Source: an uncultured Alphaproteobacteria bacterium (lineage in GTDB: Bacteria; Pseudomonadota; Alphaproteobacteria; HIMB59; GCA-002718135). From it: 64,000 bases of DNA. The stretch's first letter is position 1, and each line of letters begins with the position of its first letter. Position numbers and translations under genes: made by a program. Where the stretch lies: positions 510,414 through 574,413 of the forward strand of contig CACGZD010000001.1 of assembly GCA_902577425.1 (NCBI GenBank), given 5' to 3'. The notes under the pieces were generated by a model. The model saw only the letters and a program-made list of their open reading frames with translations, made no database searches and was not told the DNA's origin. This document shows positions 3,771 to 54,736 of this stretch, piece after piece.

Positions 3771-4184
3771 ATGAAATTAAATACTGTAGATAAAAATTTT
3801 CTTCGAAAAAGCGGTTTAAAGCCAACCACACAAAGATTAGCAATATATAAAATTTTATTTAGTGAAGGCGATAAACATTTTACAGCTGAAGAAATAAATA
3901 AACTTGCTATATCTAGAGGTTTTAAAATTTCAGTTGCTACAATTTACAATAACCTTAATCATTTCGTTGAAGCTGGTTTATTAAAGAAAAGGCAAGTTGA
4001 TAATAACCGATCTTATTTTGATAACAATGTAAGCGATCATTTTCATCTTTTTGATGAAGAGACAAATACACTTACTGATATTCCGTCTTCTTCTATAAAA
4101 TTTGCCAAGCTACCAAAATTACCCAAAAATAAACAAATAAAAAATATTAATTTAGTAATAAATATAAAAAAAAATCCAGTTTAG
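3771..4184 (+). CDS. irr: Iron response regulator Irr (Fur family)
   Basis: GLKPTTQR, HFTAEE, SVATIYNNL, YFDNNVSDHFH (HxH heme site); lacks CxxC; ICE-type operators found in the window. Confidence 0.8.
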   Translation: MKLNTVDKNFLRKSGLKPTTQRLAIYKILFSEGDKHFTAEEINKLAISRGFKISVATIYNNLNHFVEAGLLKKRQVDNNRSYFDNNVSDHFHLFDEETNTLTDIPSSSIKFAKLPKLPKNKQIKNINLVINIKKNPV

Positions 4185-4196
4185 AATAATTCTAGT
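4180..4196. promoter_or_regulatory. Irr operator (ICE) upstream of katG
   Basis: TTTAGAATAATTCTAGT vs ICE consensus TTTRGAAYNRTTCYAAA; abuts TTGACA (4200-4205)-N16-TAAATT; overlaps the irr stop codon. Confidence 0.7.
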
Positions 4197-4229
4197 CTAT
4201 TGACATTTTTAATTATAGACTTAAATTAA

Positions 4230-6380
<2,151 letters not shown>

Positions 6381-7392: not shown

Positions 7393-8121
7393 TTGGATTC
7401 AGATTCTTTTTTAGAAATGGCCAGATTTGAAGAAAATCATTGGTGGTTTTGTGGACGCAGAAAAATTTTAGATTATTTTTTAAAAAAAATAAAATTAAAA
7501 AAAAATGCCAAAATTTTAGAGATTGGCTGCGGCACTGGATCTAATTTAAAGATGTTAAAAAACTATGGTTTAGTGTCTGCTATGGAGCCAAGTGAAGATG
7601 CCATTAATTATTTAAGAAAAAAGAATTTAACTGAAATAAACTTTAGTAAAGGAAAATGTCCAGAAGATATAAATTTTGAGGATAAATTCGATTTAATTTG
7701 TATGTTTGATGTTTTGGAGCATATCGATGAGGATAGCGAAACTTTATTAAAAACAATTAAAGGTTTAAAAAATAATGGAAGATTATTTATAACTGTCCCA
7801 GCTTATCAATGGTTATGGAGTCAGCATGATATTAATTTAATGCATAAAAGAAGATACAACAGCAATACATTAAAAAATTTAATAAAAAATTTTGATATTA
7901 AAATAGAGCATATAACTTATTTTAATACTATTTTATTTCCCCTAGCATTACTCGATAGGATTGCTCAAAAAATTATAAAAAATAATAGTAAAAATAATAA
8001 ATTTCCCAATTATTTTTTAAACATTTTTTTTAAAATAATCTTTAATTTTGAAAAAATATTGCTGAAGTTTTTTTATTTTCCTTTTGGTCTTTCATTGTTG
8101 CTAATCATAAAGAAAGTTTAG
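7393..8121 (+). CDS. Class I SAM-dependent methyltransferase
   Basis: LEIGCGTG motif I, FDVLEHI, VPAYQWLWSQHD...HKRRY; TTG start. Confidence 0.82.
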   Translation: MDSDSFLEMARFEENHWWFCGRRKILDYFLKKIKLKKNAKILEIGCGTGSNLKMLKNYGLVSAMEPSEDAINYLRKKNLTEINFSKGKCPEDINFEDKFDLICMFDVLEHIDEDSETLLKTIKGLKNNGRLFITVPAYQWLWSQHDINLMHKRRYNSNTLKNLIKNFDIKIEHITYFNTILFPLALLDRIAQKIIKNNSKNNKFPNYFLNIFFKIIFNFEKILLKFFYFPFGLSLLLIIKKV

Positions 8122-8130
8122 TACGTATCC

Positions 8131-8176
8131 CGCACACTAGGGTTGAACTCCTAACCTCCAGATCCGTAGCCCGGTG
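8131..8176 (-). pseudogene. Decayed 3' fragment of tRNA-Arg(ACG)
   Basis: Minus strand CACCGGG-CT-ACG-GA-TCTGG-AGGTT-AGGAG-TTCAACC: paired anticodon stem, ACG anticodon (8167-8165), variable loop and T-loop start; T-stem 3' side decayed, no D-arm or 5' half. Confidence 0.55.
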
Positions 8177-8573
8177 ACCATTTTGGGGGTGCTAATTCAA
8201 AATCTTTATAGTCAAAAGCTGGAGCAACAGTACATCCAATTAGAGAATATTTGCCATTACTTTTCATACTAAACCAAGTACCTGCTTTTATTATCAAATG
8301 ATTATTCTCATCTTTATCAATATTGTGTCCAAGAATTTTGGTTACTGAACTTTTTCCGTCCTCTGAAATATATACGGATAAAGTATCTCCACTATAAAAA
8401 TGTAATATTTCATTTTTAGTTAATTTGTGCCAATGAGAAGTTTGATCTTTTTTAAGTAAATAATAAATTAAACTCACATTGTTTTCTTTATCGCGAAATG
8501 ATTCGGCAAAATATCCACCCTCAGGATGTGGAATCATTTTCAATTTTTCAATTAATTTTTCAGGGTCAATCAT
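8151..8573 (-). CDS. Cupin_5 / DUF985 family protein
   Basis: HPEGGYFAES, IYYLL, SHWHKL..EILHFYSG, GCTVAPAFDYKDFELA. Confidence 0.88.
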   Translation of the reverse strand: MIDPEKLIEKLKMIPHPEGGYFAESFRDKENNVSLIYYLLKKDQTSHWHKLTKNEILHFYSGDTLSVYISEDGKSSVTKILGHNIDKDENNHLIIKAGTWFSMKSNGKYSLIGCTVAPAFDYKDFELAPPKWSPGYGSGG

Positions 8574-8590
8574 AAATAAAGACTAGTATT

Positions 8591-9181
8591 TTATATTAAA
8601 TGACCAAGTTTTTTTATTTTTGTTGATATATATTTTTCATTATATTTATTGGTATCTGAAGTAAGAGCAACTCTTTGATTAACAACTATACCCATATTTT
8701 TTAATGCATTAATTTTTTTTGGATTATTTGTCATTAAATCTATTTTTTTTATTCCAAGAAAATTAATCATCCCTGAAATATTTTCATACTCTCTTTCATC
8801 TTCTTTAAAGCCTAATTGATGGTTTGCTTCTACAGTATCAAATCCCTTATCTTGAAGATTATAAGCTCGAATTTTGTTGGATAACCCAATTCCTCTTCCT
8901 TCTTGTTGCAGATAAAAAACTACACCACGACCTTTTTCAGCAATTTGCACCAAAGATTCTGTTAATTGATATCTACAATCACAGCGCATACTAAAAAATG
9001 ATTCCCCTGTTATACATTGCGAATGCACTCTACATAGAACAGGTTCATTAGTTAATAAATCACCCATACTTATTGCTAAGTGATCTTTAGAGTTCTCTTC
9101 ATCTGTAAACGCATGTACTTTAAATTCACCTACATCAGTAGGAAGGTTACTTGATTCAATAAACTTTAATTTTTTTTCCAT
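8591..9181 (-). CDS. ribA: GTP cyclohydrolase II (monofunctional)
   Basis: RVHSQCITGE..SMRCDC zinc motif, QEGRGIGL, LMTNNPKK; no RibB domain. Confidence 0.95.
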   Translation of the reverse strand: MEKKLKFIESSNLPTDVGEFKVHAFTDEENSKDHLAISMGDLLTNEPVLCRVHSQCITGESFFSMRCDCRYQLTESLVQIAEKGRGVVFYLQQEGRGIGLSNKIRAYNLQDKGFDTVEANHQLGFKEDEREYENISGMINFLGIKKIDLMTNNPKKINALKNMGIVVNQRVALTSDTNKYNEKYISTKIKKLGHLI

Positions 9182-9222
9182 TTTTAATTATGCTTTAATG
9201 TTTTATTTATTTTTGTAAATAA

Positions 9223-9699
9223 CTATAATTTAGTAGGATTAGGAGAGTTCCCATAAACATCTTTTGGATCAAAAACCTTTTCTTTTTCTTCAAATTTGAG
9301 CTTTATTTTCTTAAAATTTTTATCTTTAATAGAAATACTTCTATAAAAACATGATCTATAACCTACATGACAACTAGCCCCCCCTACAACATCTACTCTA
9401 AGCCAAATACTATCTTGATCATCATCAATTCTTATTTCTTTAATTGTTTGAACAAGTCCACTAGTCTTACCTTTGTGCCATAATGTTTGTCTACTCCGTG
9501 AATAATAAACCGCTTCACCTAAACTGATTGTTTTTTTTAGCGCTTCTTCATTCATATAACCCTGCATTAAAACTTCTCCAGAACTAAAATCAGTAGTTAC
9601 AACAGGTATTAAACCGTCTTGATCAAATTTAGGCGCTAATTCAGTTGACTCTTCAACTTGTTCGATTGTTTTTCTTTTTTCAAAATTCACTTCATTCAT
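9223..9699 (-). CDS. hisI: Phosphoribosyl-AMP cyclohydrolase
   Basis: [33 protein letters not shown]. Confidence 0.95.
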
Positions 9700-10696
9700 T
9701 TTTTAGTTCCTCTGCAATTTGTTTTGCAAAATAGGTTAAAATACCATCTGCACCAGCTCTTTTAAATGATAAAAGAGACTCTTTAATAACTTTTGATTCC
9801 AACCATCCATTATTAACAGCTCCTTTAATCATCGAATATTCGCCTGATACTTGATAGGCAAATGTTGGAACTTGAAACTCTGATTTAACGCGTTGAATAA
9901 CATCAAGATAAGGCATGCCTGGTTTAATCATTACCATATCAGCGCCTTCTTTAATATCTAGCGCAACCTCTCTAAGGGCTTCGTTACTATTTGCAACATC
10001 CATCTGGTAGGAAGATTTACTCCCCCCTTTCAAATTCCCAGAAGAACTAATAGCATCTCTAAAAGGACCATAAAATTTTGACGCATATTTTGCAGCATAC
10101 GAAAGGATCAAAGTATTTTCATATTTGTTTTGATCCAAAATGTTTCTTATTCTTCCAATTCTTCCATCCATCATATCTGAAGGAGCAATAATATCACAGC
10201 CTGCAACAGCTTGGACAAGTGCTTGTTGCTCCAATATTTCCAGAGTTGCATCATTATGAATAACATCATCAACAATAATGCCATCATGTCCATGATTTGT
10301 ATATGGATCAAGTGCAACATCACAAATAACACCAAGATCAGGAAAATTTTGTTTAATAGCTTTTATACTTCTGCAAATTAAATTATTTTCATCAACTGCT
10401 TGGGATCCATTTTCATCTTTTAATGAATTTTCAACTTGGGGAAATAACGCAACTGCTGGTATTTTTAGGTTAATAACAGTTTCTAATTCTTTTAAGATAT
10501 TATTAATTGAATATCTAAAAACACCTGGCATTGATTTTATTTCATCTGCAATATTGTTACCCTCACAAACAAAGATGGGCCATATTAGATCATTTACTGA
10601 TAAATTATTTTCACTAATCATTCTTCTTGTAAAATCTTTCATACGAAGTCTTCTTAATCGTGTTGATGGAAATTTTCCTAATTTAATATTTGACAT
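9692..10696 (-). CDS. hemB: Porphobilinogen synthase (Asp-rich, Zn-independent type)
   Basis: [46 protein letters not shown]. Confidence 0.97.
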
Positions 10697-14064: not shown

Positions 14065-14508
14065 TTAAAAAAAAGGATTATATGCCCATTGAAGTAAAGC
14101 TTGCCGCTGTTTTTTTCTACAACTAAAATATTTTTTTGGACAGTTTTTTTTAATTCCACCAATATGTCTTGGTCCAAAAGCTTTCCATCGCATTATTTGT
14201 ATTCTGTCAATCTCAGGAATTCTTCTACCAATTGAAAAACGGCAATACCATTGGAACCATCCTCTAGGATCTTCTTTCATTATCCACCCTTTGGATTCCC
14301 ATTCTTTTAAGCTTTGTCCAGACCTAATTTGAAAATAGTTTAAATTTACATCAAATGATTTACTGATTTTAGCTTTTTTAAACCATGACTCTGGAAATTC
14401 ATTAATTGTATTTCCTAAATATGAACCACCAAACACCCCATACTCCAGCATTTTTTTTGGACTTAATTCTGGTTTGAATTCAGCGTAAAAATCCTTTTGT
14501 TTCTTCAT
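14065..14508 (-). CDS. Conserved hypothetical protein
   Basis: Well-formed ORF with motif-like segments PELSPKKMLEYGVFGG, GWFQWYCRF, RWKAF, CRKKQRQALLQWAY; no function assignable. Confidence 0.7.
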   Translation of the reverse strand: MKKQKDFYAEFKPELSPKKMLEYGVFGGSYLGNTINEFPESWFKKAKISKSFDVNLNYFQIRSGQSLKEWESKGWIMKEDPRGWFQWYCRFSIGRRIPEIDRIQIMRWKAFGPRHIGGIKKNCPKKYFSCRKKQRQALLQWAYNPFF

Positions 14509-16990: not shown

Positions 16991-17395
16991 TTAGTAATTT
17001 AGTTCAATTGTAATTGGCTCACCATGAATAAGATTAATAGAAGCTTTAGAAAATTTTGGTGGACCTTTAGGTTGGTAGTTGTTGCTAAAAGCAAAGCCTT
17101 CTTTAGGCCTCCAAAAAAGTCCAGTTTTTAGCTCATTATTTGAATCTTCATCATGATAAACTACTACTGCTATCTTTCCTTCGTGTATTTTTGTTAAGGG
17201 AATTATGGTTTGTCCTTTAACAGCTTTTTTTCTTACAGATTCAATAGCAAGATCTTCTTTTAAAAAATTTTCTTTATTATTATAAATCTTAAGGTCTATA
17301 TATCCTTCATCATGTTCAACATTTGTAATAATTATTGTTCCATGAGCATATACTGTAGTAGGTAAAATAAATAAAAAGAGTATTAACAAGCGCAC
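16991..17395 (-). CDS. DUF2141 family exported protein
   Basis: VVYHDEDSNNEL, PKEGFAFSNN, GPPKF; GTG start at 17395 gives a signal peptide and removes overlap with pabB. Confidence 0.75.
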   Translation of the reverse strand: MRLLILFLFILPTTVYAHGTIIITNVEHDEGYIDLKIYNNKENFLKEDLAIESVRKKAVKGQTIIPLTKIHEGKIAVVVYHDEDSNNELKTGLFWRPKEGFAFSNNYQPKGPPKFSKASINLIHGEPITIELNY

Positions 17396-17438
17396 AAAAA
17401 ACCTTTTCTTATTAAATTCTAAGATATAATACTTAACT

Positions 17439-18668
17439 TTGTTAAATAATAAAGAATATTTAGAGCGTCTTTTTGACTCCGATAAGCCCATAATTATATA
17501 CAGGGTTACAAACGGATTTGATGTATACACTGATTTTTCAAAAAAAATTAAACTGACTAAAAAAAATGCAAAACAGTTTTTTGAAAAAGAGGTAAGAAAA
17601 AAAAATTCTAAAAATAAATTTTTTGATGGTTATGTTGGTTTTTTAAGTTTTGAACTTCAGTGTAAGTTAATAAATGTTAATCTACCCAAACAAAAAACAA
17701 ATGGTTTTAATGACAGTTTTTTTTATAAACCAGATACACTAATTAAAATTAGAAAAGATATACAAGTTTTTAAGACCACAATTTATAGTACGATTAGTAA
17801 AGCAGAAAGGGAGAAAAAAATTTCCATTTCTAAAAAAAAATTTTTTTATGATAAAAATTTTGATGTAAATATTTCTTTAGAAAAATATACAAAATTATTT
17901 AACCATTTTTCAAAAAAAATTCGTGAAGGTAAAACTTATCAAATAAAAATTTGTCAAAAATATAGAAATAAATCAAATATTGATGCGGTTCAATTTTTTT
18001 GGAAGCTAATGAAAGTCAATACTTCACCTGAGTCATTTATGATTAGAGATAATAATTTTTCAATTATTAGCTGTTCTCCAGAAACGCTAATTGATAAAAA
18101 GAAAAATATAATTATCACTAAACCAATTGCAGGAACTTTAAGAAAAAATAAAAATACATCACTTAGATTTGCAAAGAAATTTTTTGCTAAAAATTTAAAA
18201 GAAAGCAAAGAACACAATATGATTGTGGATATGGAAAGAAATGATTTATCAAGAATTTGTAAAGTCGGAAGCGTCAAGATCAAAGATTTAAAATCTGTTG
18301 AGGAATATAAGGATTTATACCATTATGTAACCACTATTAAGGGAATTTTAAAAAACAAAATTTCATCATTTGATATTATAAAAGCAATGATGCCTGGTGG
18401 TTCAGTTATAGGCTGTCCTAAAATAAGTACTTTAAATTTATTAAATTTTCAGGAAAAAGATAGTCGCAATATCTATACGGGAAGTTTTGGCTATATTAAA
18501 TCTAATGGAGATATGAGATTTAATATAATTATTAGATCTCTTTTAAATTATAAAAATATATCAGAAATTGCTGTAGCAAGTGGTGTAATATTAGGTAGCA
18601 CTGCAATTAAAGAATATAATGAAAACTTTATAAAAGCTAAGTCCTTATTGGATATTTTTAAATCATGA
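17439..18668 (+). CDS. pabB: Aminodeoxychorismate synthase component I
   Basis: Chorismate-binding domain: SCSPE, KPIAGT, KEHNMIVDMERNDL, MPGGSVIGCPK, YTGSFG; in folate operon. Confidence 0.85.
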   Translation: MLNNKEYLERLFDSDKPIIIYRVTNGFDVYTDFSKKIKLTKKNAKQFFEKEVRKKNSKNKFFDGYVGFLSFELQCKLINVNLPKQKTNGFNDSFFYKPDTLIKIRKDIQVFKTTIYSTISKAEREKKISISKKKFFYDKNFDVNISLEKYTKLFNHFSKKIREGKTYQIKICQKYRNKSNIDAVQFFWKLMKVNTSPESFMIRDNNFSIISCSPETLIDKKKNIIITKPIAGTLRKNKNTSLRFAKKFFAKNLKESKEHNMIVDMERNDLSRICKVGSVKIKDLKSVEEYKDLYHYVTTIKGILKNKISSFDIIKAMMPGGSVIGCPKISTLNLLNFQEKDSRNIYTGSFGYIKSNGDMRFNIIIRSLLNYKNISEIAVASGVILGSTAIKEYNENFIKAKSLLDIFKS

Positions 18669-19222
18669 TTTACATTATAGATCACGAAGATTCATTTACA
18701 TTTAATTTGGCTCATCTACTTGGCGCTTATGATACTGTTCAAGTATCTAATTTTTATGAAATCAATAAATCACAATTAAAAAAAGCTGATATGATTGTTT
18801 TGTCTCCAGGGCCTGGGGAACCTAAAAATTATCCAACAACAACAAAAATATATCATGAATATAAAGGAAAGAAAAAAATTCTTGGAATTTGTTTAGGATT
18901 CCAACAAATATTATTTGCAGAGGGTGGTCAAATTGTACAACAAAAAAATATTTATCATGGCTACCAATCTACAATTAATGTTTTACCAAGAAGTTATTTA
19001 TATAAACATTATAAAAAATTATCAGTTGGAAGATATCATTCATTAAAACTAAAAGAACCTTTTCAATCTTCTTCAATAAATATAACAATGCGATGTCAAA
19101 AAACTAATATAGCTATGGCCCTGGAGGATAAAAAAAATAAGATATTTGGATTTCAATTTCATCCTGATTCTTTTTTAACAAAAAATGGAAAAAACATTAT
19201 ACAAAAAATCTTATCAGCTTAA
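18665..19222 (+). CDS. pabA: Glutamine amidotransferase component II
   Basis: DHEDSFT, LSPGPGEP, GICLGFQ, GRYHSL, FQFHPDS. Confidence 0.85.
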   Translation: MIYIIDHEDSFTFNLAHLLGAYDTVQVSNFYEINKSQLKKADMIVLSPGPGEPKNYPTTTKIYHEYKGKKKILGICLGFQQILFAEGGQIVQQKNIYHGYQSTINVLPRSYLYKHYKKLSVGRYHSLKLKEPFQSSSINITMRCQKTNIAMALEDKKNKIFGFQFHPDSFLTKNGKNIIQKILSA

Positions 19223-19937
19223 TTCTTTCGCACCTAAAAGATATGATGATCTTTTGGGTAAGAGGGGTATTTTTTCCACTATTAGAGTTATAGGAAAAAA
19301 ACCTAAATTCATTTTAATAGATTATCATATAAAAAATATGAATATAGCTTTGAAAAAAATGAACATTAATTTTTATATTTCTGAAAAACTGATTTTAGAT
19401 TTTTTGCAACCTGCATTTAATAAATTAAATAATAAAGATAGTTTATTAAGAGTGGCTATTAATTCAAATACAATTTCTTTATCTTTAAGAACTAGACCAA
19501 AATACTATAAAGATTTTATCGGTGTATTTTCTTTTTATAAACGTCCAATACCTCATGTAAAAAATTTATATTATAAAAAGGTCATGAAGCTTATCAATTC
19601 AATTTATCTTAGGAAACAAGAGATAATTTTATGTAATAGAGGCCTTATATTAGAAGGATGTACAACAAATGTTATATGCATAAAGAATAAAAAAATCTAT
19701 ATTCCTAAAGAACACTATTATAAAGGATGTACTATTAGTTACCTATTAAAAACTACTAAACGCCAAATACAAAAATCAAATATTGCTATTAATAACCTAA
19801 ACAAATATGAAGAAATTTTGTTAGTAGGGTCAGGAAAAGGAGTTGTTAGTTTATCTGCAATACCTGAAATAAATTGGAAATCTAAATCTACTTTAATTTA
19901 TAAAGAATTTATGAATTTATATAAAAAAATATTATGA
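19185..19937 (+). CDS. pabC: Aminodeoxychorismate lyase-like PLP class IV enzyme
   Basis: GIFSTIR, HVKNL lysine, LEGCTTN, YKGCT; position between pabA and folP. Confidence 0.7.
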   Translation: MEKTLYKKSYQLNSFAPKRYDDLLGKRGIFSTIRVIGKKPKFILIDYHIKNMNIALKKMNINFYISEKLILDFLQPAFNKLNNKDSLLRVAINSNTISLSLRTRPKYYKDFIGVFSFYKRPIPHVKNLYYKKVMKLINSIYLRKQEIILCNRGLILEGCTTNVICIKNKKIYIPKEHYYKGCTISYLLKTTKRQIQKSNIAINNLNKYEEILLVGSGKGVVSLSAIPEINWKSKSTLIYKEFMNLYKKIL

Positions 19938-20764
19938 AAACCATGATTTTAAATAAAAATAAATTTAATTTTCAATCTCCTCTAATTATGGGAATATGTA
20001 ATGTAACAAAAGATTCTTTTAGTGATGGGGGAAAAAATTACAAAACATCAGATGCATTAACAAATATAAAAAAAATGTGGAAGAATGGAGCATCTATTAT
20101 AGATATTGGCGCAGAAAGCACGAGACCAGGAAGTGAGCCTATAACATATAAAAAAGAAATTAAAAAACTAGAACCTATTTTAAAAAAACTACCTAAAAAT
20201 AAATTTATTATTTCCATAGATAGTAATAAAATAGAAACACAAGAATTTGTCTTACAACAAGGTGTTCATATAATTAATGACATATATGCAGGAAATGAAG
20301 ATTTATTTTATTTATCAAAAAAATATAAAAATGGTTTAATATTAATGCATACACCGGCTCCTCCAAAGTCTATGCAGTTAATGACAGGAAGTTACAAAAA
20401 TATAATTAATGATATTAGAAAATTTTTTTTATCTAAATCAAAATTATTAAAAAAATATAAAATTCCTCAATCTAAAGTTTATTTTGATCCAGGAATAGGT
20501 TTTGGAAAAAATCTTTATCAAAACTTAGACATCATAAAAAATATTAATAAATTTAAGATCGAAAAATATGGTTTGTTAGTTGGTACATCAAGGAAGAGCT
20601 GGATAAGTAAAATTGATAATTCTCTAATAAACCAAAGGTTGGGAGGCTCAATTGCATCAGTTATATATTGTCTTGAAAAAGGAGTTGATATATTTCGAGT
20701 ACACGATGTTCAAGAAACCAAACAGGCAATCAATATATATAAAAAAATTTTATGTTTGAAGTAG
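19934..20764 (+). CDS. folP: Dihydropteroate synthase
   Basis: MGICNVTKDSFSDGG, DIGAESTRPG, FDPGIGFGK, GTSRKSW, RVHDV. Confidence 0.95.
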   Translation: MKTMILNKNKFNFQSPLIMGICNVTKDSFSDGGKNYKTSDALTNIKKMWKNGASIIDIGAESTRPGSEPITYKKEIKKLEPILKKLPKNKFIISIDSNKIETQEFVLQQGVHIINDIYAGNEDLFYLSKKYKNGLILMHTPAPPKSMQLMTGSYKNIINDIRKFFLSKSKLLKKYKIPQSKVYFDPGIGFGKNLYQNLDIIKNINKFKIEKYGLLVGTSRKSWISKIDNSLINQRLGGSIASVIYCLEKGVDIFRVHDVQETKQAINIYKKILCLK

Positions 20765-21096
20765 AAATAAAAAACTTAAAAACTAAAGCAAAAATAGGAA
20801 TTAGCTCTAAGGAGAGAACAAAATTTCAAACATTGCTAATTACTTGTCGTTTTAAATATTCAATAATTAAAAAAGAAAAAATTGATGACATTAAATATCT
20901 AAAAGATTATTCTTCTATAGTTAGGTTTTTAAAAGAATTTGTCCAAAAATCTAAATATAAAAGCATAGAACGATTAACTTTTGAATGTATTAATATTTTA
21001 GAAAAGAAATATAAATTAAAAAAAGTATTTATAAAAGTTAACAAGGTTGAAGTGGCAAAACGATATGGATGTGAGTCAATAAGTGTGTCAAAATAA
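20752..21096 (+). CDS. folB: Dihydroneopterin aldolase
   Basis: IGISSKER..Q, DYSSIV, KSIERL, VKVNK; size and position. Confidence 0.75.
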   Translation: MFEVEIKNLKTKAKIGISSKERTKFQTLLITCRFKYSIIKKEKIDDIKYLKDYSSIVRFLKEFVQKSKYKSIERLTFECINILEKKYKLKKVFIKVNKVEVAKRYGCESISVSK

Positions 21097-21595
21097 GGTT
21101 TTTCTAGCACTTGGCTCAAATGTAGGAAATTGGAAAGTTAATTTTAATTCTTGTTTAAATGAATTAAAAAAAATTTCCAAACTAAAAGCTATTGCAAATA
21201 TTTATGTATCAAAACCTTATGGCTATAAAAAACAAAATGATTTTTACAATACCGTTGTTGCAGTTAAAACACGCAATAGTCCATTTCAATTAATGAACCA
21301 AATTAAAATAATTGAAAAAAAACTACACAAAAATAAAATATTGATCAATGGACCCAGGCGAATAGATATTGATATTATCTTTTTTAATTCATTAAATATT
21401 TCTTATAAAAACTTAATTATTCCGCACCCAAGAGTTAGTGAAAGAGATTTCGTTTTATTACCCTTGTTTGATATTGATCCTTTTTTTAAACATCCACAAT
21501 CTAAAAAATCTATAAAAGCATTAACAGCTGAACTCCAAACAACTTATATCAAAAAAAGCATTAAGCAGCCGAAAGAGATGTTTGTAATTCATTAA
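21083..21595 (+). CDS. folK: HPPK (6-hydroxymethyldihydropterin pyrophosphokinase)
   Basis: LALGSNVG, QNDFYNTV, GPRRIDIDII, LIIPHPR, RDFVLLPL. Confidence 0.93.
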   Translation: MCQNKVFLALGSNVGNWKVNFNSCLNELKKISKLKAIANIYVSKPYGYKKQNDFYNTVVAVKTRNSPFQLMNQIKIIEKKLHKNKILINGPRRIDIDIIFFNSLNISYKNLIIPHPRVSERDFVLLPLFDIDPFFKHPQSKKSIKALTAELQTTYIKKSIKQPKEMFVIH

Positions 21596-22220
21596 GTTTT
21601 AATAAAGATATATCATTATTTTCATCTTTGAGACTTCTTGAGACATCTAATCCATTTGGTGAAGCTACCTTTACAATATTTCTAGCATTATTATTATTAA
21701 TACCACCACCAATAAATACTGGAATATTGAATGTCTTTAAAAATTGAATGTGATCTAAACAATCATTTAGAGGATAGGTAATTATTTTACTATCTGTATA
21801 AACATTTAAATCATAATAATAAATATCAGTTAATGAGTGAATATCGCTAAGATAGGTTTTATCAAATTTTTTTGGATTAATAGCAATACCTATTTTTAAT
21901 TTTTTAAAAATAGATTTAAGTGATAGCAAATCCTCTTTAGGAAAAAAATATGAACACGAAATAGTTTTAGGCTTAGTAAAATCTATTTGAGCAATTAACT
22001 CTTTAAGTGTTTGATGACGCGTTAATAGAACTGACTCAATTTTATAATAGTCGCATTCTTGAATTAAATTTTTAATTTCCTCATCATTACATGTATTTGG
22101 ACCAGGAAGGTTATTACTGGCGAAACCCAATAATTTAACATTATTTTCTGCAGCAATTTTTATTGATGAGACAGAAGTAATGCCACATATCTTTAAGTTT
22201 ATTTTAAAGTTTTTGTTCAT
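21561..22220 (-). CDS. Divergent TrpF (phosphoribosylanthranilate isomerase)-like TIM barrel
   Basis: KICGIT catalytic Cys, YYYD acid, IGGGIN, GLDVS; GGTG loop absent; no trp genes nearby. Confidence 0.75.
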   Translation of the reverse strand: MNKNFKINLKICGITSVSSIKIAAENNVKLLGFASNNLPGPNTCNDEEIKNLIQECDYYKIESVLLTRHQTLKELIAQIDFTKPKTISCSYFFPKEDLLSLKSIFKKLKIGIAINPKKFDKTYLSDIHSLTDIYYYDLNVYTDSKIITYPLNDCLDHIQFLKTFNIPVFIGGGINNNNARNIVKVASPNGLDVSRSLKDENNDISLLKLNELQTSLSAA

Positions 22221-22252: not shown

Positions 22253-23692
22253 ATGTATAATTCTTTCTATAGAAAAGTTGGTTTTGGTATTGGTATTAAT
22301 GACAAAATACCAGCTGACCCCCTTAAATGGGCAACTGACCAGCTTGATGAAATTCCCGAACTTTTGTGGACTGGATGGATACCGTCTGAGAAAGAAATGA
22401 GAATTAAATATGGAGAATGGATATATGGAGATCGTAAAGTATTAAGAAAGAAATATAAAAATGATAAAAATGCTTACAGAAAAGCAAAAGATAAATTGAG
22501 TATTCAAACGGGAGAAAGATTTTTTGAATTAAATGAGCATGCTATACGCCACTATCAAACAAAATATAGTAATCAACCTGTATTTGAGCGCTTCTGGTTA
22601 TTTTGGGGAAATCATTTTGCAATTAGTGAAAAAGACTCTTTAGCTGACTTTAGCACAGGTCCATATCAACGCGAAATTATTAGACCAAATATGATTAAAA
22701 CATTTGAAGATATGGTTCAAGAAGTAACAAGATCCTGGTGCATGATCCATCATCTTGATAATTCTGAATCGGTAGGGCCTAACTCTAAAAGAGGAATTGA
22801 ATCTAGGGATACAATTAATGAAAACCATGCAAGAGAATTATTGGAATTACACACTGTATCACCTGAAGCTGGTTATACACAAGATGATGTTATTAATCTT
22901 GCTTACATAATGACTGGTTGGGGTCACAAATGGAATAATAAAGTTTTAGAAACCGGAGATGTGTGGTTTGATCAAGATAAACATCAAAAAGGAGAGAAAA
23001 TAGTTTTAGGTAAAAAATATAAAAATGAAGGCAAACGTGAATTAAGCAAAGTGATTCACGACTTATCAAATCATCCGCAATGTATTAAATTTGTTTCTAC
23101 AAAGTTGTGTAGGCATTTTATTACTGACAATCCAACAAAAGATATGGTTGATCCTGTGATTAAGGCATGGACTAATTCAAATGGTAATTTAATTAAAATA
23201 CATAAAGCTGTAATACAACAAGCTTATAAGAATAATAATTTTACTTATAAGTTTCAGTTACCAGAGGTTTGGATAATGCAATTATCTAGAATTTTTGATT
23301 TAAATTTACCTATTTCATCAAAAAAAATGAACTATGAATTTAAGTTTGAGCCTTCTAATAGACAAGAACAATTGACTTGGTATCTTAATGAAGTCGGTCA
23401 TTCGCCTTATAGACCAAAACAACCTAATGGATGGAGTGATTATGAAGTTGATTGGATATCTCCTGAATTATTACTTCGTCGTTTATGGTTTGCTTCTAAT
23501 GAAATTCCTAACCATGTTAAAATAGAAAACTATAGTCATGGTTTTATGTCTCTATGCCTTGAAAGAAATTTTGATAATCATGAAAGAATGACTTCAATGA
23601 TAGAAGATTTAAAAATAAATAAAATAACTAAAAATGATTTAGAAAAAATATATGGAATAATTTGTAATTTACCATGGATATTAAAAGCATGA
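22253..23692 (+). CDS. DUF1800 family protein
   Basis: LFWGNHFAIS, HHLDN, INENHARELLELHTV, YTQDDV, PNGW. Confidence 0.9.
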   Translation: MYNSFYRKVGFGIGINDKIPADPLKWATDQLDEIPELLWTGWIPSEKEMRIKYGEWIYGDRKVLRKKYKNDKNAYRKAKDKLSIQTGERFFELNEHAIRHYQTKYSNQPVFERFWLFWGNHFAISEKDSLADFSTGPYQREIIRPNMIKTFEDMVQEVTRSWCMIHHLDNSESVGPNSKRGIESRDTINENHARELLELHTVSPEAGYTQDDVINLAYIMTGWGHKWNNKVLETGDVWFDQDKHQKGEKIVLGKKYKNEGKRELSKVIHDLSNHPQCIKFVSTKLCRHFITDNPTKDMVDPVIKAWTNSNGNLIKIHKAVIQQAYKNNNFTYKFQLPEVWIMQLSRIFDLNLPISSKKMNYEFKFEPSNRQEQLTWYLNEVGHSPYRPKQPNGWSDYEVDWISPELLLRRLWFASNEIPNHVKIENYSHGFMSLCLERNFDNHERMTSMIEDLKINKITKNDLEKIYGIICNLPWILKA

Positions 23693-24840
23693 ATTGTACT
23701 AGGAGGAATTTTTTAATAGGAGGATCAACAACACTATTTCTTACAGGGTTTTTATCTAAACAAAGCTTTGGCAATATAAAAAAAAATAACCTTGTTATTA
23801 TTTCATTGCGCGGAGGTATGGATGGTTTAACCGCTGTTCCTGTATTAGGTGATAAACGATTAAAAAAATTAAGAAGAGAATTAATATTAGAGCAAACACT
23901 AAAATTAAATAGTGATTTTGCTCTACACCCAAAGTTAGAAATTTTTCATCAGTTATGGAAAGAGAATAAAGCTGCTTTCGTGCATGCTACAAATATTCCT
24001 TATACTGGAAGATCACATTTTGATGGACAAAATCTAATGGAAACCGGAGGTCATGTTCCTTATAAAGAAAAAACAGGTTGGCTTGGTAGAGGATTGTTGT
24101 CCTCTAATATAATTGGCGAAGGTCTTGCTATTTCTTTACCTATGCCATTACTTTTGAGAGGTGTACCTCAGAATAATAATTTTTTTCCTTCACCGGATTA
24201 CGTTAAAACAAAATTAATTGATTATATTTATGATGAATTTAGAGAAGATCATAATGAATTAATTAGATCCACTTTTGATACAATAAAAAAAAGACCAATT
24301 TCAATGCAAATTGCAACTGATTCAAATGATAGAAATAAATTGGCAAAAGAAGCTGCTAAACAATTAAAAGATTCCAGCGGACCAAGAGTAGCTGTTTTTG
24401 AATTAGATGGTTTTGATACTCATGCTGCTCAAGGTGGGGTTGATGGAGCTCACGCTGATGAACTTGAAGAAGTTAATAATATTGTAGAAATTCTTCATAG
24501 AAATCTTGGAGAAGTTTTTAATGATACATTAATTGTGACACTAACAGAATTTGGAAGAACTATTAAACAAAATGGCGGTTATGGTACAGAGCATGGATAT
24601 GGAAGCGCTATTTTAATGGCTGGAGGGTTATTAAAAAAAGCACAAGTATATACAGATTGGCCAGGATTAAAGAAAAGAGAATTGTTTGAAGGCAGAGATT
24701 TAAATTCAACAATTGATGCAAGAGCAGTTTATAATTCTGCGATGGCTGTGTGTTTTAATAAAGATCCAGAGTTTCTAAAACGTGAGGTATTCTGGGGCGA
24801 TAATCTTCCCGATCTAACCAGCGAATTATTTAAAGTTTAA
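23674..24840 (+). CDS. DUF1501 family protein with Tat signal
   Basis: TRRNFL, LRGGMDGL, RSHFDGQ, GFDTH, TEFGRT, TEHG. Confidence 0.9.
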   Translation: MDIKSMNCTRRNFLIGGSTTLFLTGFLSKQSFGNIKKNNLVIISLRGGMDGLTAVPVLGDKRLKKLRRELILEQTLKLNSDFALHPKLEIFHQLWKENKAAFVHATNIPYTGRSHFDGQNLMETGGHVPYKEKTGWLGRGLLSSNIIGEGLAISLPMPLLLRGVPQNNNFFPSPDYVKTKLIDYIYDEFREDHNELIRSTFDTIKKRPISMQIATDSNDRNKLAKEAAKQLKDSSGPRVAVFELDGFDTHAAQGGVDGAHADELEEVNNIVEILHRNLGEVFNDTLIVTLTEFGRTIKQNGGYGTEHGYGSAILMAGGLLKKAQVYTDWPGLKKRELFEGRDLNSTIDARAVYNSAMAVCFNKDPEFLKREVFWGDNLPDLTSELFKV

Positions 24841-24912: not shown

Positions 24913-25329
24913 ATGTTAAAAACAGATATGATTTCAGAGAACTTTGAAAAATTATTTAATGCAGCAAAAATGGTTAGAGACAATGCACATGTTCCTTACT
25001 CTAATTTTAAAGTGGGAGCAGCTTTTTTGACTGATGATAACTCTATCGTTTCTGGCTGTAATGTAGAAAATGCTGCTTATCCTCAATCTCAGTGCGCTGA
25101 AGCTAGCGCTATTGGAAATTTAGTTAGTCAGGGATTTTCTAAAATTAAAGAAGTAGTTGTCATAGGATCAGGATCTTTGTTATGTTCACCTTGTGGTGGC
25201 TGTCGACAACGTTTAAGAGAATTTGCTTCTTTAGAGACACCAATTCATATGTGTAATAGTGACGGTCATTTAAAAACTTCTACACTTAAAGAATTATTGC
25301 CAGACTCTTTTGGTCCAGAAAATTTATAA
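24913..25329 (+). CDS. cdd: Cytidine deaminase
   Basis: PYSNFKVGAA, GCNVENAAY, CAE, SPCGGCRQ. Confidence 0.95.
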   Translation: MLKTDMISENFEKLFNAAKMVRDNAHVPYSNFKVGAAFLTDDNSIVSGCNVENAAYPQSQCAEASAIGNLVSQGFSKIKEVVVIGSGSLLCSPCGGCRQRLREFASLETPIHMCNSDGHLKTSTLKELLPDSFGPENL

Positions 25330-26159
25330 TGCATAACTCTGCTAAATTGTTTTTAGAAAAAACAAATAATATTAATCCAGACATTGCTGTTATTTTAGGA
25401 AGCGGTCTAACTAATTTTTTTGAAGATAAAAATATTATCAGCTCAATTTCTTATGAAGATCTTCCAGATTTTCCACAACCAACTGTTAAAGGTCACGCTG
25501 GTAAACTCGTTCTAGGAAAAATTAGTGAAATGAATATTGTTTGTATGTATGGACGTTCTCATATCTACGAAGGTCACGAGCCACAAAGTTTAGCAAAACC
25601 TATTAGGGTATTAAAAGATATTGGATGTAAGTTGTTAATTGTTACAAACGCTGCAGGAAGCCTTGATCAAAATATGCCCGCTGGAAGTTTAATGGCTATT
25701 ACTGATCATATTAATTGGAGTGGATTTAATCCTTTAATTGGTATTAATGCTGATGCTTACGGGCCACGCTTTAATGATATGAGTGATGGCTATCATAAAA
25801 AGTATAGAGACCAATTAATTAAAACAGCCAATAAAATAAATCAAAAGGTATATGAAGGAATTTACTGCATGTATTCTGGACCAAATTTTGAAACACCTGC
25901 TGAAATCAATGCTCTTAAAGTTATTGGAGGAAATGCAGTAGGAATGTCAACTATTCCAGAAGTGTTAGTGGCTAATCATTGTGGTCTTCCAGTTATTGCG
26001 ATTAGTGTAATTACAAATTTAGCAGCAGGAATGAATAAAACCAAACTAAGTCACCAAGAAACATTAGAAAATGCTGCACTAGCAGAAAACAATATAACAA
26101 ATCTTATTAAAAACTATATTCACGATGTAAAATTAGATGATTCCTCAGGAAATAATTAG
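25329..26159 (+). CDS. punA: Purine nucleoside phosphorylase (trimeric PunA/XapA type)
   Basis: ILGSGL, GHAG, GRSHIYEG, TNAAG, GPNFETPAE, GMST. Confidence 0.92.
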   Translation: MHNSAKLFLEKTNNINPDIAVILGSGLTNFFEDKNIISSISYEDLPDFPQPTVKGHAGKLVLGKISEMNIVCMYGRSHIYEGHEPQSLAKPIRVLKDIGCKLLIVTNAAGSLDQNMPAGSLMAITDHINWSGFNPLIGINADAYGPRFNDMSDGYHKKYRDQLIKTANKINQKVYEGIYCMYSGPNFETPAEINALKVIGGNAVGMSTIPEVLVANHCGLPVIAISVITNLAAGMNKTKLSHQETLENAALAENNITNLIKNYIHDVKLDDSSGNN

Positions 26160-27450
26160 AAAAAAAAGAGAAGGCCATTCTTTAACAGAAGAAGAAATAA
26201 AATTTTTTGTTAATGGTCTAACGGACAAATCATTTTCCGATATCCAGATTGCAGCTATGAGCATGGCAATCTTTTTGAATGATATGTCATCTGAAGAAAC
26301 AGTATGGATGACTCATGCTATGAAAAATTCAGGTGATACTTTAGAGTGGAAAAAAATAGTAGATAGTGATTTGGTTTGTGATAAACATTCCACAGGCGGT
26401 GTTGGAGATAAAACAAGTCTTTTGTTAGCACCAATTTTAGCTGCTTGTGATTTATTTGTTCCTATGATTTCTGGAAGAGGGCTTGGACATACCGGAGGGA
26501 CACTTGATAAGTTTGATGCAATACCCGGATATAATACTCAGCCAGATATTGAAACTTTTAAAAAAGTTGTCAAAGAAGTTGGGTGTGCAATTATTGGACA
26601 AACTTCCAATTTAGCTCCTGCTGATAAAAAACTATATTCCATAAGGGATGTCGTTGGAACGGTGGAGTCACTTCCACTTATCACCTCATCTATTTTGTCA
26701 AAAAAAATTGCTTCCGGAATTACATCTCTAGTGTTGGATGTAAAAGTAGGCAACGGATCTTTTAATTCTACAATACAAATTGCAGAAAAGTTGGCAAAAT
26801 CCTTAGTGAATGTTGCCAAAGGCGCTGATCTAAAGTGTGAAGCCCTTATTACTGATATGAATCAAGTTTTAGGAAAAAGTGCCGGTCACTCCTTAGAGGT
26901 TATTGAATGTATTGAATATTTAACAACAACAAAAAGAGACAAGAGACTAGAAATTATTACTAATGATTTAGCATCTTCCCTTTTAATGATGATAAACAAT
27001 ATTTCAAAAGAAGAAGCTTTAAATAAAATAAATTCAGTTTTAGATAATGGACTAGCTGCAGAAAAATTTGAAAAAATGGTTCATGCATTAGGAGGTAGTA
27101 ATTCTTTTTTAAGCTCATATGAAAAACAATTAGCCGGCAATTCTTATTCTGAAGAAATTTTTTTGAATGAAAGTGGCTGGATTAAAGAAATAGATACACG
27201 AAAGCTTGGCTTAACTCTTATTCAGCTTGGGGGAGGAAGAAAAAAAGTAGATGATAAAATAAATTATCAAGTAGGCTATAATAATATTTTAGGAATAGGT
27301 GAGTATGTTGAAGAAAAAAAACCTGTATTAAAAGTTTTTGCTGATACTGAGGATTCTTTTAAGCAAATTAAAGATCAAATTATCAACTCTTTTGTTTTAA
27401 CAGATCAAGAAGTAAAAAAACCTAAAAATATATATCAAGTGATAAATTAA
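26137..27450 (+). CDS. deoA: Thymidine/pyrimidine-nucleoside phosphorylase
   Basis: DKHSTGGVGDK, ISGRGLGHTGGTLDK, SILSKK, DVKVGNG. Confidence 0.95.
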   Translation: MIPQEIIRKKREGHSLTEEEIKFFVNGLTDKSFSDIQIAAMSMAIFLNDMSSEETVWMTHAMKNSGDTLEWKKIVDSDLVCDKHSTGGVGDKTSLLLAPILAACDLFVPMISGRGLGHTGGTLDKFDAIPGYNTQPDIETFKKVVKEVGCAIIGQTSNLAPADKKLYSIRDVVGTVESLPLITSSILSKKIASGITSLVLDVKVGNGSFNSTIQIAEKLAKSLVNVAKGADLKCEALITDMNQVLGKSAGHSLEVIECIEYLTTTKRDKRLEIITNDLASSLLMMINNISKEEALNKINSVLDNGLAAEKFEKMVHALGGSNSFLSSYEKQLAGNSYSEEIFLNESGWIKEIDTRKLGLTLIQLGGGRKKVDDKINYQVGYNNILGIGEYVEEKKPVLKVFADTEDSFKQIKDQIINSFVLTDQEVKKPKNIYQVIN

Positions 27451-51645: not shown

Positions 51646-52170
51646 ATGAATTTTGACAATTATGATTTTTTAGATACCTCTAAATTTGCTGGAAAAATTA
51701 TTCTTACATCTTTCCCTGGTTTAATCGAAAATACGCGTTTTGATATTTCATTTTTTTTAAAAGAGTTAAAAATATTTAAGGATAATAATTGTTCTTCAAT
51801 TACATCTTTTGTAGAAGATAGTGAGTTTGAAAAAATCTGTGATAAAAAAAACTTCGTTGAACAAATCTATCATAATAAGTTAAAGTGGTACCATCTACCT
51901 ATTAAAGATTTAGGTGCTCCTAATACTGAATTTAAATTTAAGTGGGAAACAACAAAAGTTTTATTAAAAAATGAATTGATCGAAGGCAAAAATATAGTTT
52001 TGCATTGTCGTGGAGGAAAAGGACGGGCAGGAACAGTTGCCGCATTATTATTAATTGATTTTGGAGTTAAAAAAGAAGAGGCTATTCAGCTCGTACGATC
52101 AAGAAGAAAAGGTGCTATTGAAACAAAAGAACAAGAAGAATTTATTTTTTCTTATAGACCTGTAGCTTAG
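51646..52170 (+). CDS. CX5R cysteine phosphatase (CDKN3/dual-specificity-like)
   Basis: HLPIKD acid loop, HCRGGKGRAG P-loop, GAIETKEQ. Confidence 0.88.
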   Translation: MNFDNYDFLDTSKFAGKIILTSFPGLIENTRFDISFFLKELKIFKDNNCSSITSFVEDSEFEKICDKKNFVEQIYHNKLKWYHLPIKDLGAPNTEFKFKWETTKVLLKNELIEGKNIVLHCRGGKGRAGTVAALLLIDFGVKKEEAIQLVRSRRKGAIETKEQEEFIFSYRPVA

Positions 52171-53219
52171 TAATTTACGGTTAAATTAAAAATATTTTGT
52201 AACACAAATAAAATTATAAAAGATATTAATGCTGCAAGGATTGGCAACAAAACCCAACCTATAGAAATTTTCCTTGCAATTGTCCATTGAACCTCTTTTC
52301 CACCTTTTAATAATCCTATACCAATTACACCACCCACGACTGCTTGAGAGCTTGATACTGGAACAAGAGGAATTGAGGGTAAATTAATTGACTGAAGAAA
52401 ATTACTAATACCTTGAGAAGCAAATAAAAATAAAACGATAGAATGAGCTAGTACAACGATAAAAGCGGCTACAGGGGACATTTTTAATAAATCATTTCCA
52501 ACAGTAAACATTACTTTTTTAGAATAAGTAAAAACACCAACTGCTATAGCAATACCACCTAATAGAAAAAGTTGCTCTTTGGACGAGAAATTAAAATCAT
52601 TTAAAATATTAATATCAGTAAAAGGTGAGATAGGGACAAAAACCCCCATTACATTAGCAATGTTATTAGCTCCTAGACTGTACGCTCCAAAAGCACCAGC
52701 TAATAAAAGAGCCGTTCTCGTATATGCGTCTAATCGCAGAATATGTAATTTTGCTTTTTGTAGAAAATTTTTTGTTATTACAAAAAAAAGCATTGAAAGC
52801 AAACCAGCAATAATAGGACATAAAACCCAAGTACCTAAAATTGTAATTAAAACTTGAATATTGGTTGAAGATCCAGTGTACAAGTTCCATCCTATAATAG
52901 CGCCAACAATTGCCTGCGTTGTTGAAACAGGAAGACCAGATTTTGTCATTATATATACTGAGAGCCCAGCAGCAATACATGCAGCAAAAGCTCCAGGCAA
53001 TGCATTGATTGATCCGAGCTTACCCAGTGTTTCGGTTGTTCCAGATCCACTAATAATAGCTCCTAGAATAACAAAGATACTACAAACAATTGCAGCAGTT
53101 TTAAATTGTACCATGCGCGTGCCAACCGCAGTTCCAAAAACATTAGCTGCATCATTGGCTCCTAAAGACCATCCTAGAAATAATCCTCCTAAGAGAAAAA
53201 TAATAATTGTTAATTCCAT
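52167..53219 (-). CDS. PiT family inorganic phosphate transporter
   Basis: GANDAANVFG and GANNIAN signatures, PVSTTQ, PVSSSQ. Confidence 0.92.
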   Translation of the reverse strand: MELTIIIFLLGGLFLGWSLGANDAANVFGTAVGTRMVQFKTAAIVCSIFVILGAIISGSGTTETLGKLGSINALPGAFAACIAAGLSVYIMTKSGLPVSTTQAIVGAIIGWNLYTGSSTNIQVLITILGTWVLCPIIAGLLSMLFFVITKNFLQKAKLHILRLDAYTRTALLLAGAFGAYSLGANNIANVMGVFVPISPFTDINILNDFNFSSKEQLFLLGGIAIAVGVFTYSKKVMFTVGNDLLKMSPVAAFIVVLAHSIVLFLFASQGISNFLQSINLPSIPLVPVSSSQAVVGGVIGIGLLKGGKEVQWTIARKISIGWVLLPILAALISFIILFVLQNIFNLTVNY

Positions 53220-53226
53220 AAATTAA

Positions 53227-53889
53227 TTAAACTGATCTTTTGATAGCGTAGATCTGAATTTCATCTGAAATATCTTCTGCTTGATCACAAATACGATCAA
53301 TTTTTTCAACAAAATAACGTAGATGCATTTTTTGATCCAAAGAAAGATTAGAATCAAAAATTTTTCTCGCCAAAGAACTAAATTTTATATCAGATTCTTT
53401 TTCATAAAATGTTACTTTGTGTGCATTGTCTCTAACAGATTTAATATCTCTAAAAAACGATCTTACTGTTAAACATAGTGCCTCTACACAATTTACTACA
53501 GTCTCTGTTAAATCAATTAAATCGTCATGAAACTCTTTTGGAAAATTTGGTTTTTGAATAGAGAAATGATAACAATTACCTTGATACATTCCAATAACTT
53601 CATCAAGATGTTCAAGAACTCTTAATACATCACTTCGAGCATCGGGAATTAATGTTTCTTCATATAAGGTGTGCTCCACTTCTTTGGTTATTTTATCAGC
53701 CTTACTTTCCATTAATTTAACTTGTTCGACCATTTCATCAAATTTGCCATTGGCAGAACTAGATAAATATGTTGGAATAATAGACTTAAATACCAAGCCT
53801 ACTTCAGAGAGAATATCAACAAATTCGTCTATTTCTCTCTCTAATTTTTTGGTTTCACCAAATAAAGATGTACTTTTTAATCCAAACAT
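53227..53889 (-). CDS. DUF47 (PhoU-like) PiT accessory protein
   Basis: ESKADKI, YEKESD, DQAEDISD; directly upstream of PiT. Confidence 0.9.
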   Translation of the reverse strand: MFGLKSTSLFGETKKLEREIDEFVDILSEVGLVFKSIIPTYLSSSANGKFDEMVEQVKLMESKADKITKEVEHTLYEETLIPDARSDVLRVLEHLDEVIGMYQGNCYHFSIQKPNFPKEFHDDLIDLTETVVNCVEALCLTVRSFFRDIKSVRDNAHKVTFYEKESDIKFSSLARKIFDSNLSLDQKMHLRYFVEKIDRICDQAEDISDEIQIYAIKRSV

Positions 53890-53928
53890 TTGGTGCTTAT
53901 AGAACTTTTATTAAAAAAATAAAGCTAT

Positions 53929-53946
53929 GTTACATTTTTGTTACAA
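53929..53946 (-). promoter_or_regulatory. Pho box upstream of DUF47-PiT
   Basis: Minus strand TTGTAAC-AAAA-ATGTAAC, 11-bp periodic direct repeat. Confidence 0.7.
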
Positions 53947-54019
53947 ACTCGTAGTTTTTCAAATTGTTGCAATATATAAATTATACTAATCTTCATATTA
54001 ATATTTTAAAGGAGCAAGA

Positions 54020-54247
54020 ATGAATTATGTATCGATGAACCAATTAAAATGGCTAAGTACTGGATTAGTATTAGCAGGAATTTTATTAACTAATTTAAAT
54101 TATTATCCATTAAATATTTTTACTCATGGTCTTGGCGCCATAGGATGGGCTATTGCTGGTTATATTGCCAAAGATAGAGCTTTAATGACAAATTTTGGAT
54201 TTCAAATTCCTCTATTTGCGATTGGATATTTTTACTATTTTACTTAA
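54020..54247 (+). CDS. Small membrane protein (DUF6552-like)
   Basis: GGAG RBS; KWLSTGLVL, YPLNIF, KDRALM; two to three TM segments. Confidence 0.7.
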   Translation: MNYVSMNQLKWLSTGLVLAGILLTNLNYYPLNIFTHGLGAIGWAIAGYIAKDRALMTNFGFQIPLFAIGYFYYFT

Positions 54248-54250
54248 TAG

Positions 54251-54673: not shown

Positions 54674-54736
54674 TCTTTATTAATTTTTTAATAAGAGAGG
54701 TTTTTTTAGGAAATAATAAATTAATTATTCATCATT

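Follow-up and report, generated by a model that had tools for sequence, protein, structure and literature searches.

A 64-kb stretch of contig CACGZD010000001.1 (GenBank assembly GCA_902577425.1, positions 510,414 to 574,413), from an uncultured Alphaproteobacteria bacterium, carries a compact folate operon that converges on a divergent relative of the tryptophan gene trpF. This stretch, all 64,000 nucleotides (nt) of it, is called the window below, and the trpF relative is called trpFL (trpF-like). The window is AT-rich, with a GC content of about 31%. Six forward-strand genes, pabB-pabA-pabC-folP-folB-folK, form a tight operon in which neighbours overlap or abut, as annotated with Pfam and NCBIfam. 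They cover all steps of the pterin and para-aminobenzoate (pABA) branches but two: GTP cyclohydrolase I and the pyrophosphatase (FolE and FolQ). The genes concerned are these:

17439-18668, forward: pabB, aminodeoxychorismate synthase component I (Pfam Chorismate_bind, 241 bits; top NCBIfam match PabB-clade2)
18665-19222, forward: pabA, the glutamine amidotransferase component (TIGR00566, 123.9 against a cut-off of 121)
19185-19937, forward: pabC-like class IV aminotransferase, aminodeoxychorismate lyase (Pfam Aminotran_4, 60.9 bits; the top NCBIfam matches are PabC models, each scoring under its cut-off)
19934-20764, forward: folP, dihydropteroate synthase (TIGR01496, 265.7 against a cut-off of 162.6)
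20752-21096, forward: folB-type dihydroneopterin aldolase/epimerase domain protein (Pfam FolB, 63.2 bits; TIGR00526, 63.1 against 45; under the NCBIfam cut-offs of both equivalog models, FolB and FolX)
21083-21595, forward: folK (HPPK), last gene of the operon (Pfam HPPK, 113.6 bits; TIGR01498, 115.4 against a cut-off of 54.1)
21561-21595: convergent overlap of the folK and trpFL 3' ends, 35 nt
21561-22220, reverse: trpFL, 219 amino acids, a TrpF-fold (beta/alpha)8 barrel in which Cys12, Asp137, G171-G173 and D192/S194 are kept
8591-9181, reverse: ribA, monofunctional GTP cyclohydrolase II (NF001591, 263.9 against 148; TIGR00505, 241 against 205.85)

As listed, the TTG start of pabB gives a 92-nt overlap (17439-17530) with the 5' end of a divergent DUF2141 gene (16991-17530); the true start is probably further downstream.

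An initial annotation of the window had described the exact 35-nt overlap of a divergent TrpF homologue with the 3' end of folK, a folate operon without folE, the absence of trp genes nearby, and a monofunctional ribA at 8591-9181 with no other rib gene. All of this is borne out. Pfam searches of every sizeable open reading frame (ORF) in the window matched no trp gene, folE, folE2, queuosine gene or second rib gene; FolE probes of the window agree; and ribA passes the NCBIfam cut-offs for its monofunctional form.

The trpFL protein

trpFL is a real, selected gene and more than a chance ORF, because it has 719 homologues in the protein collection searched, a ratio of nonsynonymous to synonymous substitution of about 0.10 (purifying selection, comparable to folK) and a confident fold. 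An AlphaFold (AF2) model, made from an alignment of 47 sequences, has a mean predicted local distance difference test (pLDDT) of 94.4 and a predicted template-modelling score (pTM) of 0.90. Its ten best matches in the PDB are all TrpF, with template-modelling (TM) scores of 0.71-0.84 at 14-19% identity; the structures matched are 4AAJ, 5LHF, 1V5X, 1DL3, 4WUI, 1LBM and 1NSJ. TrpF is likewise the sole family match in Pfam and NCBIfam, and a weak one. Pfam PRAI (PF00697) gives 21.5 bits and its gathering score of 22.7 is not reached. The NCBIfam TrpF equivalogs, whose cut-offs are 172-270, give no more than 36 bits for the window protein; a member of the more distant tier described below (P0132) reaches no more than 57.

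Residues were matched through a MAFFT alignment with Thermotoga maritima TrpF (the 1LBM sequence). In that enzyme Cys7 and Asp126 are reportedly the acid-base pair, and Arg36 is said to hold the carboxylate of anthranilate. The alignment supports the earlier observation of a retained catalytic Cys and Asp and a missing GGTG loop: Cys7 corresponds to Cys12 (KICG) and Asp126 to Asp137 (YYYD). S157-G158-G159 correspond to G171-G172-G173, and Asp178/Ser180 to Asp192/Ser194. Elsewhere the pocket differs: Arg36 of the SPR motif becomes Asn42; His83 of the QLHG motif becomes Ser90; and the GGSG loop (GGTG..FDW in the signature) has no counterpart. In its place, between beta6 and alpha6, the model has two short strands (139-141 and 146-148) that form a short conserved beta-hairpin.

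Conservation follows the same division. K10, C12, G32, D137, G173, N178 and D192 are invariant in the trpFL family together with its closest ordinary TrpF relatives. The family by itself shares G40-P41-N42-T43, Y135-Y136-D137-L138-N139-x-Y141, C154 and GGGIN without exception, and in it the replacements of the motifs specific for phosphoribosylanthranilate (PRA), namely SPR, QLHG and GGTG, are fixed. Judging from these alignments, the residues for the Amadori chemistry and for the 5'-phosphate are kept in trpFL, and the part that recognises the aglycone appears to have been rebuilt and then frozen. This would be the expected signature of an enzyme that applies the TrpF reaction to another N-ribosylamine.

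A simpler suggestion is that trpFL is the very divergent PRA isomerase (TrpF, EC 5.3.1.24) of these lineages, either their sole trpF or a redundant copy. Several observations make this very unlikely: the scores fall short of the Pfam cut-off and of every TrpF cut-off in NCBIfam; three features have been lost, namely the SPR Arg, the QLHG His and the GGTG loop, with invariant residues in their stead; the 64 kb hold no trp genes; and a 96-97% identical homologue carries the NCBI pipeline name 'hypothetical protein'. Two AT-rich relatives, moreover, have a canonical alphaproteobacterial trpF in the order trpF-trpB-trpA-accD. In favour of the suggestion, TrpF alone provides the closest families in both sequence and fold, the catalytic Cys and Asp are retained, and no second TrpF was found in the window or the related loci. 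In fold and chemistry residues trpFL works like TrpF, but by score, motifs and context it falls outside that family, and it should not be labelled a PRA isomerase. In one of the two AT-rich relatives (P0195) folC is the next gene; P0195 was considered as the canonical trpF of trpFL-bearing genomes and set aside, as it is not SAR11-specific.

Distribution and neighbourhood

When 1.84 billion cluster representatives were searched exhaustively with phmmer, only about four full-length trpFL-family clusters at 50% identity emerged (P0121, 64%; P0123, 57%; P0132, 32%). Beyond these, the matches are ordinary TrpFs, 22-28% identical. Among outgroup TrpFs, the nearest (P0157, P0175) are on contigs that are short and uninformative. 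One TrpF-like subgroup (P0186, P0188, P0191, P0202) has KxCC for KxCG and MPSGPG for SPR, and retains the GGTG loop.

Scanning GTDB with a single genome for each species yielded 61 trpFL loci. With one exception these belong to SAR11-type single-cell genomes and metagenome-assembled genomes ('Pelagibacteraceae bacterium AG-349-E10', 'MarineAlpha5', and GORG single-amplified genomes, SAGs). The odd one out, L021, is a contig of 5 kb that was placed, probably wrongly, in an 'uncultured Flavobacteriales' bin. No cultured SAR11 strain is among the 61, and no trpFL was found on IMG/VR viral contigs. The loci fall into two tiers by identity to the window protein: 55-97% (tier 1) and 32-36% (tier 2). 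In SAG AG-917-G13 (L061:9983-10646), trpFL is broken into two overlapping ORFs by a frameshift, due to a sequencing error or marking a pseudogene.

The related loci were examined as 20-kb slices, 1.1 Mb in all. Wherever a locus reaches past the trpFL 3' end, trpFL converges on folK and overlaps it at the end of pabBAC-folPBK (59 of 59 loci, a set gathered via trpFL itself, from which operons without trpFL would escape notice). A 1.5-kb metagenome contig (L001) has the identical folK-trpFL arrangement by eye. The overlap measures 24, 35 or 44 nt, depending on lineage. The neighbour on the other side of trpFL changes at least five times: DUF1800 (divergent, in the window), cdd, a small ORF, malate synthase, and katG with a MIP channel. 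The initial annotation had a divergent TrpF paralogue feeding FolB-FolK-FolP; within this sample the tie to these genes holds at every locus, across operon proteins only 33-57% identical between the tiers.

Between-tier identity is 33-36% for trpFL, 37% for FolK, 33% for FolB and 35% for PabC. The GC content of the pab-fol-trpFL block is 22-28% (window 17439-22220, L005-L057), against 29-36% in the flanks. That of trpFL equals the operon's, 4-10 points under both flanks in all 11 loci measured and in the window. Such low GC could mean that the block is of foreign descent, or that its genes are weakly expressed and their composition relaxed. Since linkage, GC and divergence all go with the operon, trpFL behaves like a seventh gene of the block, though it lies on the opposite strand.

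Adjacency to folK might instead be an accident frozen by the overlapping 3' ends, with trpFL unrelated to folate and the low GC marking a low-expression or variable region. Separating convergent genes that share 24-44 nt would disrupt them. In 45 tier-2 loci, the katG stop precedes the start of trpFL by 3 nt, with both genes on one strand, and joint expression is possible. Nor was a regulatory element common to trpFL and the operon found: Rfam detected no riboswitch or other family in the window, promoter-like sites there are no commoner than chance, and the folK/trpFL junction has no terminator-like site. However, the length of the overlap differs by lineage, and the junction has therefore been remodelled without the genes parting. 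Composition and divergence follow the operon and not the other flank, and trpFL was not found in SAR11 lineages without the compact operon. We consider an accident of this kind decidedly unlikely.

A possible bypass of FolE

It is possible, and is proposed here tentatively, that trpFL encodes an Amadori isomerase of TrpF fold, specialised and functionally part of the pab-fol block, with the RibA product as its likeliest substrate and a bypass of FolE and FolQ as the outcome. In this mechanism the TrpF chemistry would be retained: Cys12 as the general base; Asp137 as the general acid; and G171-G173 with D192/S194 holding the 5'-phosphate. The anthranilate pocket would have been remade through the change of Arg36 to Asn42, of His83 to Ser90, and of the GGTG loop to the conserved YYDLN-x-Y beta-hairpin. 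The most probable substrate would be the RibA product 2,5-diamino-6-ribosylamino-4(3H)-pyrimidinone 5'-phosphate, which on rearrangement would close to 7,8-dihydroneopterin 3'-phosphate. Dephosphorylation would follow, and then FolB, FolK and FolP of the adjoining operon. The route would thus stand in for FolE and FolQ, as it does biochemically for Chlamydia TrpF.

trpFL is a good candidate for such a bypass because the chemistry residues are intact, the aglycone pocket is altered, the association with folK is constant, and the gap in the operon matches. We infer its substrate, its product and any absence of FolE, and equally any link to the ribA of the window. The bypass presupposes that trpFL-bearing genomes are free of folE and folE2, or at least that these genes anticorrelate with trpFL, and that a canonical trpF exists elsewhere in them. 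The neighbours of that ribA are hisI and hemB (Pfam), and in 7 of the 13 tier-1 loci about 9 kb separate the ribA-hisI pair from the folate operon. In the window (8591-9699) the pair consists of monofunctional ribA directly adjoining a hisI that is likewise monofunctional (PRA-CH only, not hisIE); each encodes a zinc-dependent cyclohydrolase.

The precedent invoked by the initial annotation is real. In Chlamydia trachomatis, TrpF (CT327) together with RibA bypasses FolE and FolQ: the purified enzyme turns the RibA product ('compound V') into dihydroneopterin monophosphate, and chlamydial trpF complements a delta-folE strain of E. coli (Adams et al. 2014, mBio; PMC4161248). Both systems have a TrpF-fold enzyme, FolB, FolK and FolP in the genome, a local fol cluster without folE, and RibA. 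The proposed chemistry is also the same, namely an Amadori rearrangement of the RibA product and ring closure to dihydroneopterin monophosphate. However, chlamydial trpF sits in the trp operon in some species and not beside the fol operon, whereas trpFL is locked to folK. The chlamydial enzyme is reported to be a promiscuous, broad-specificity and still-working PRA isomerase (PMC4161248), whereas trpFL belongs to a separate, strongly remodelled family lacking SPR, QLHG and GGTG, with an activity predicted from its sequence. The hosts of trpFL, unlike Chlamydia, are free-living marine SAR11-type bacteria.

Other known systems resemble trpFL in part. Canonical TrpF (PF00697; 1LBM/1NSJ, and 4AAJ from Pyrococcus furiosus) shares the barrel (TM 0.77-0.84), the catalytic Cys and Asp, and the phosphate-binding GGG and DxS; trpFL differs in being only 14-19% identical to solved structures, below the cut-offs, and without trp neighbours. 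The dual-substrate PriA/HisA isomerases of Actinobacteria are also barrels for the Amadori rearrangement of ribosylamines, and their substrate range is moved by changes in active-site loops. They are nonetheless of a HisA-like family, two-fold symmetric with two phosphate sites, and TrpF structures rank first for trpFL. FolE2 (GTP cyclohydrolase IB) is a non-orthologous replacement of FolE that would fill the same hole in the pathway, but its fold and chemistry are unrelated and it was not seen in the window.

FolE2 in other bacteria is tied to zinc limitation, and a znuABC/Fur-family cluster adjoins the tier-2 pab-fol operon. In tier-2 loci generally (for example L036:14897-19898), this metal-uptake cluster stands on the pabB side: a solute-binding protein, a Fur-family regulator, ZnuA, a ZnuC-like ABC ATPase, a ZnuB (ABC-3) permease, and a second Fur-family (Zur-like) regulator. 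Because FolE-IA, RibA and HisI are zinc enzymes, the folate block could conceivably be connected with zinc economy.

The substrate may also be something else: another phosphorylated ribosylamine or aminoketose, in pterin salvage or repair or in an unrelated pathway, with FolE making the pterin as usual. Retained chemistry in a rebuilt aglycone pocket fits this equally, FolE is present in SAR11 strain HTCC1062, and the TrpF/HisA fold has been recruited for several Amadori-type reactions (PMC4161248, discussion). Still, no neighbour points to an alternative substrate, the sole invariant neighbour is folK of the pterin branch, and the one obvious gap of the operon is precisely the FolE/FolQ step; a different substrate is unlikely.

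Several considerations weigh against the FolE bypass. As the initial annotation cautioned, trpFL is convergent with the operon and is not co-transcribed with it; the opposite strands are confirmed. The 24-44-nt overlap alone could freeze the adjacency without any functional link, and in tier 2 katG ends 3 nt ahead of trpFL on its strand. No ribA lies within 10 kb of the operon in tier-2 loci. Many bacteria keep folE apart from the fol operon, so an operon without folE is weak evidence for a bypass. FolE is also required for queuosine precursor synthesis, and may well be retained in trpFL-bearing genomes for that reason. Nor is there a precedent for an active site of this pattern carrying out the reaction, because the Chlamydia enzyme is reported to be a PRA isomerase that still works, and not a remodelled paralogue (PMC4161248). 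Finally, cultured SAR11 HTCC1062 is listed with FolE1 and scattered FolB, FolK and FolP (SEED table, supplement of de Crecy-Lagard et al. 2007).

HTCC1062 is without the compact operon, and trpFL was not found there either (phmmer clusters and the one-genome-per-species scan). Because it has neither, folE with scattered fol genes and the compact operon with trpFL could be alternative configurations, which is suggestive and nothing more.

FolE probes gave no match in the window ORFs, in tblastn of the window, or in the 1.1 Mb of related loci. The probes do work, since 120 metagenome FolE proteins were matched at up to 313 bits. FolE2 is absent from the Pfam matches of the window, the related loci not having been probed for it. 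An AT-rich CEHH...PQxQE DNA pattern, scanned against metagenome contigs, returned the 120 FolE loci. In Alphaproteobacteria, FolE probably has RLQxQE instead, so a SAR11 FolE may be missed by the PQxQE pattern.

Candidates for a FolE belonging to the window were also considered. A folE-cysS-thrS cluster (L096, L160, L182) was examined as its missing folE, with a syntenic gap at ORF 14065-14508 (reverse strand, 147 amino acids, upstream of cysS-thrS in the window and without a Pfam family). The cluster's CysRS is 59-61% identical to that of the window, and its ThrRS 46-48%, against 72-82% inside the window's tier; it was rejected because the ThrRS is too divergent and the wider contigs are unlike SAR11. 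ORF 14065-14508 was ruled out as a FolE remnant, as it has no FolE similarity. The folE-cysS-thrS cluster marks a very abundant AT-rich marine lineage (L096, L160, L182, L184-L194), whose near-identical 46-kb contigs, with arylsulfotransferase/dockerin genes, recur in many Tara samples. The mismatch between its CysRS and ThrRS may reflect transfer of CysRS or uneven evolutionary rates. Tetranucleotide signatures failed to separate SAR11 from other AT-rich marine contigs.

A broader form of the proposal is that several uncultured SAR11 subclades make the folate pterin without GTP cyclohydrolase I, through a seven-gene block and a dedicated new family derived from TrpF. This is somewhat doubtful. 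The block (pabB-pabA-pabC-folP-folB-folK plus convergent trpFL) would then need only chorismate and the RibA product, and the trpFL family would be a RibA-product isomerase, or dihydroneopterin-phosphate synthase. Overall, the bypass interpretation is plausible, testable and partly supported.

Other features of the window and related loci

Next to trpFL in the window, a DUF1800/DUF1501 pair on the opposite strand (22253-24840) begins 32 nt from the trpFL start; it is not at that position in other lineages. A nucleoside-salvage cluster follows at 24913-27450: cdd, purine nucleoside phosphorylase and thymidine phosphorylase. At 3771-6380 a catalase-peroxidase, KatG, lies behind a Fur-family regulator. 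In tier-2 loci (L017-L062, about 7826-9979), katG is immediately upstream of trpFL with a MIP channel ahead of it. Cultured SAR11 are noted for lacking catalase, and katG in these SAR11-type lineages is thus notable.

Genes for phosphate acquisition are densely packed at 52167-63060: a PHO4-type transporter accompanied by a PhoU_div protein, a low-molecular-weight phosphatase, a histidine kinase, pstSCAB, phoU and a phoB-like regulator. Extension of the window at its ends added nothing relevant.

Significance

The initial annotation knew of no such route outside Chlamydia, and the searchable literature yielded no paper on such a gene or route there; nor did it yield anything specific on SAR11 folE or the SAR11 folate pathway. 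If the proposal is true, a FolE/FolQ bypass would no longer be peculiar to reduced intracellular pathogens, and free-living members of the sea's most abundant heterotroph group would have a dedicated enzyme family for it. The family would have a usable annotation signature: KxCGIT ... GPNT ... YYDLNxY ... GGGIN.

Predictions of folate (vitamin B9) production and auxotrophy in marine communities would change as well, and calls of zinc demand would need revising. Going by the presence of FolK/FolP alone, a 2026 survey (PMC13408713) predicts that folate auxotrophy is extensive in Pelagibacterales. The patchy pab-fol-trpFL block is ecologically relevant for this reason.

For enzymologists, trpFL would offer a natural case of re-specialisation of the TrpF barrel that is directly testable. 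Should trpFL do otherwise, it would still be a conserved, selected enzyme fixed to a vitamin operon.

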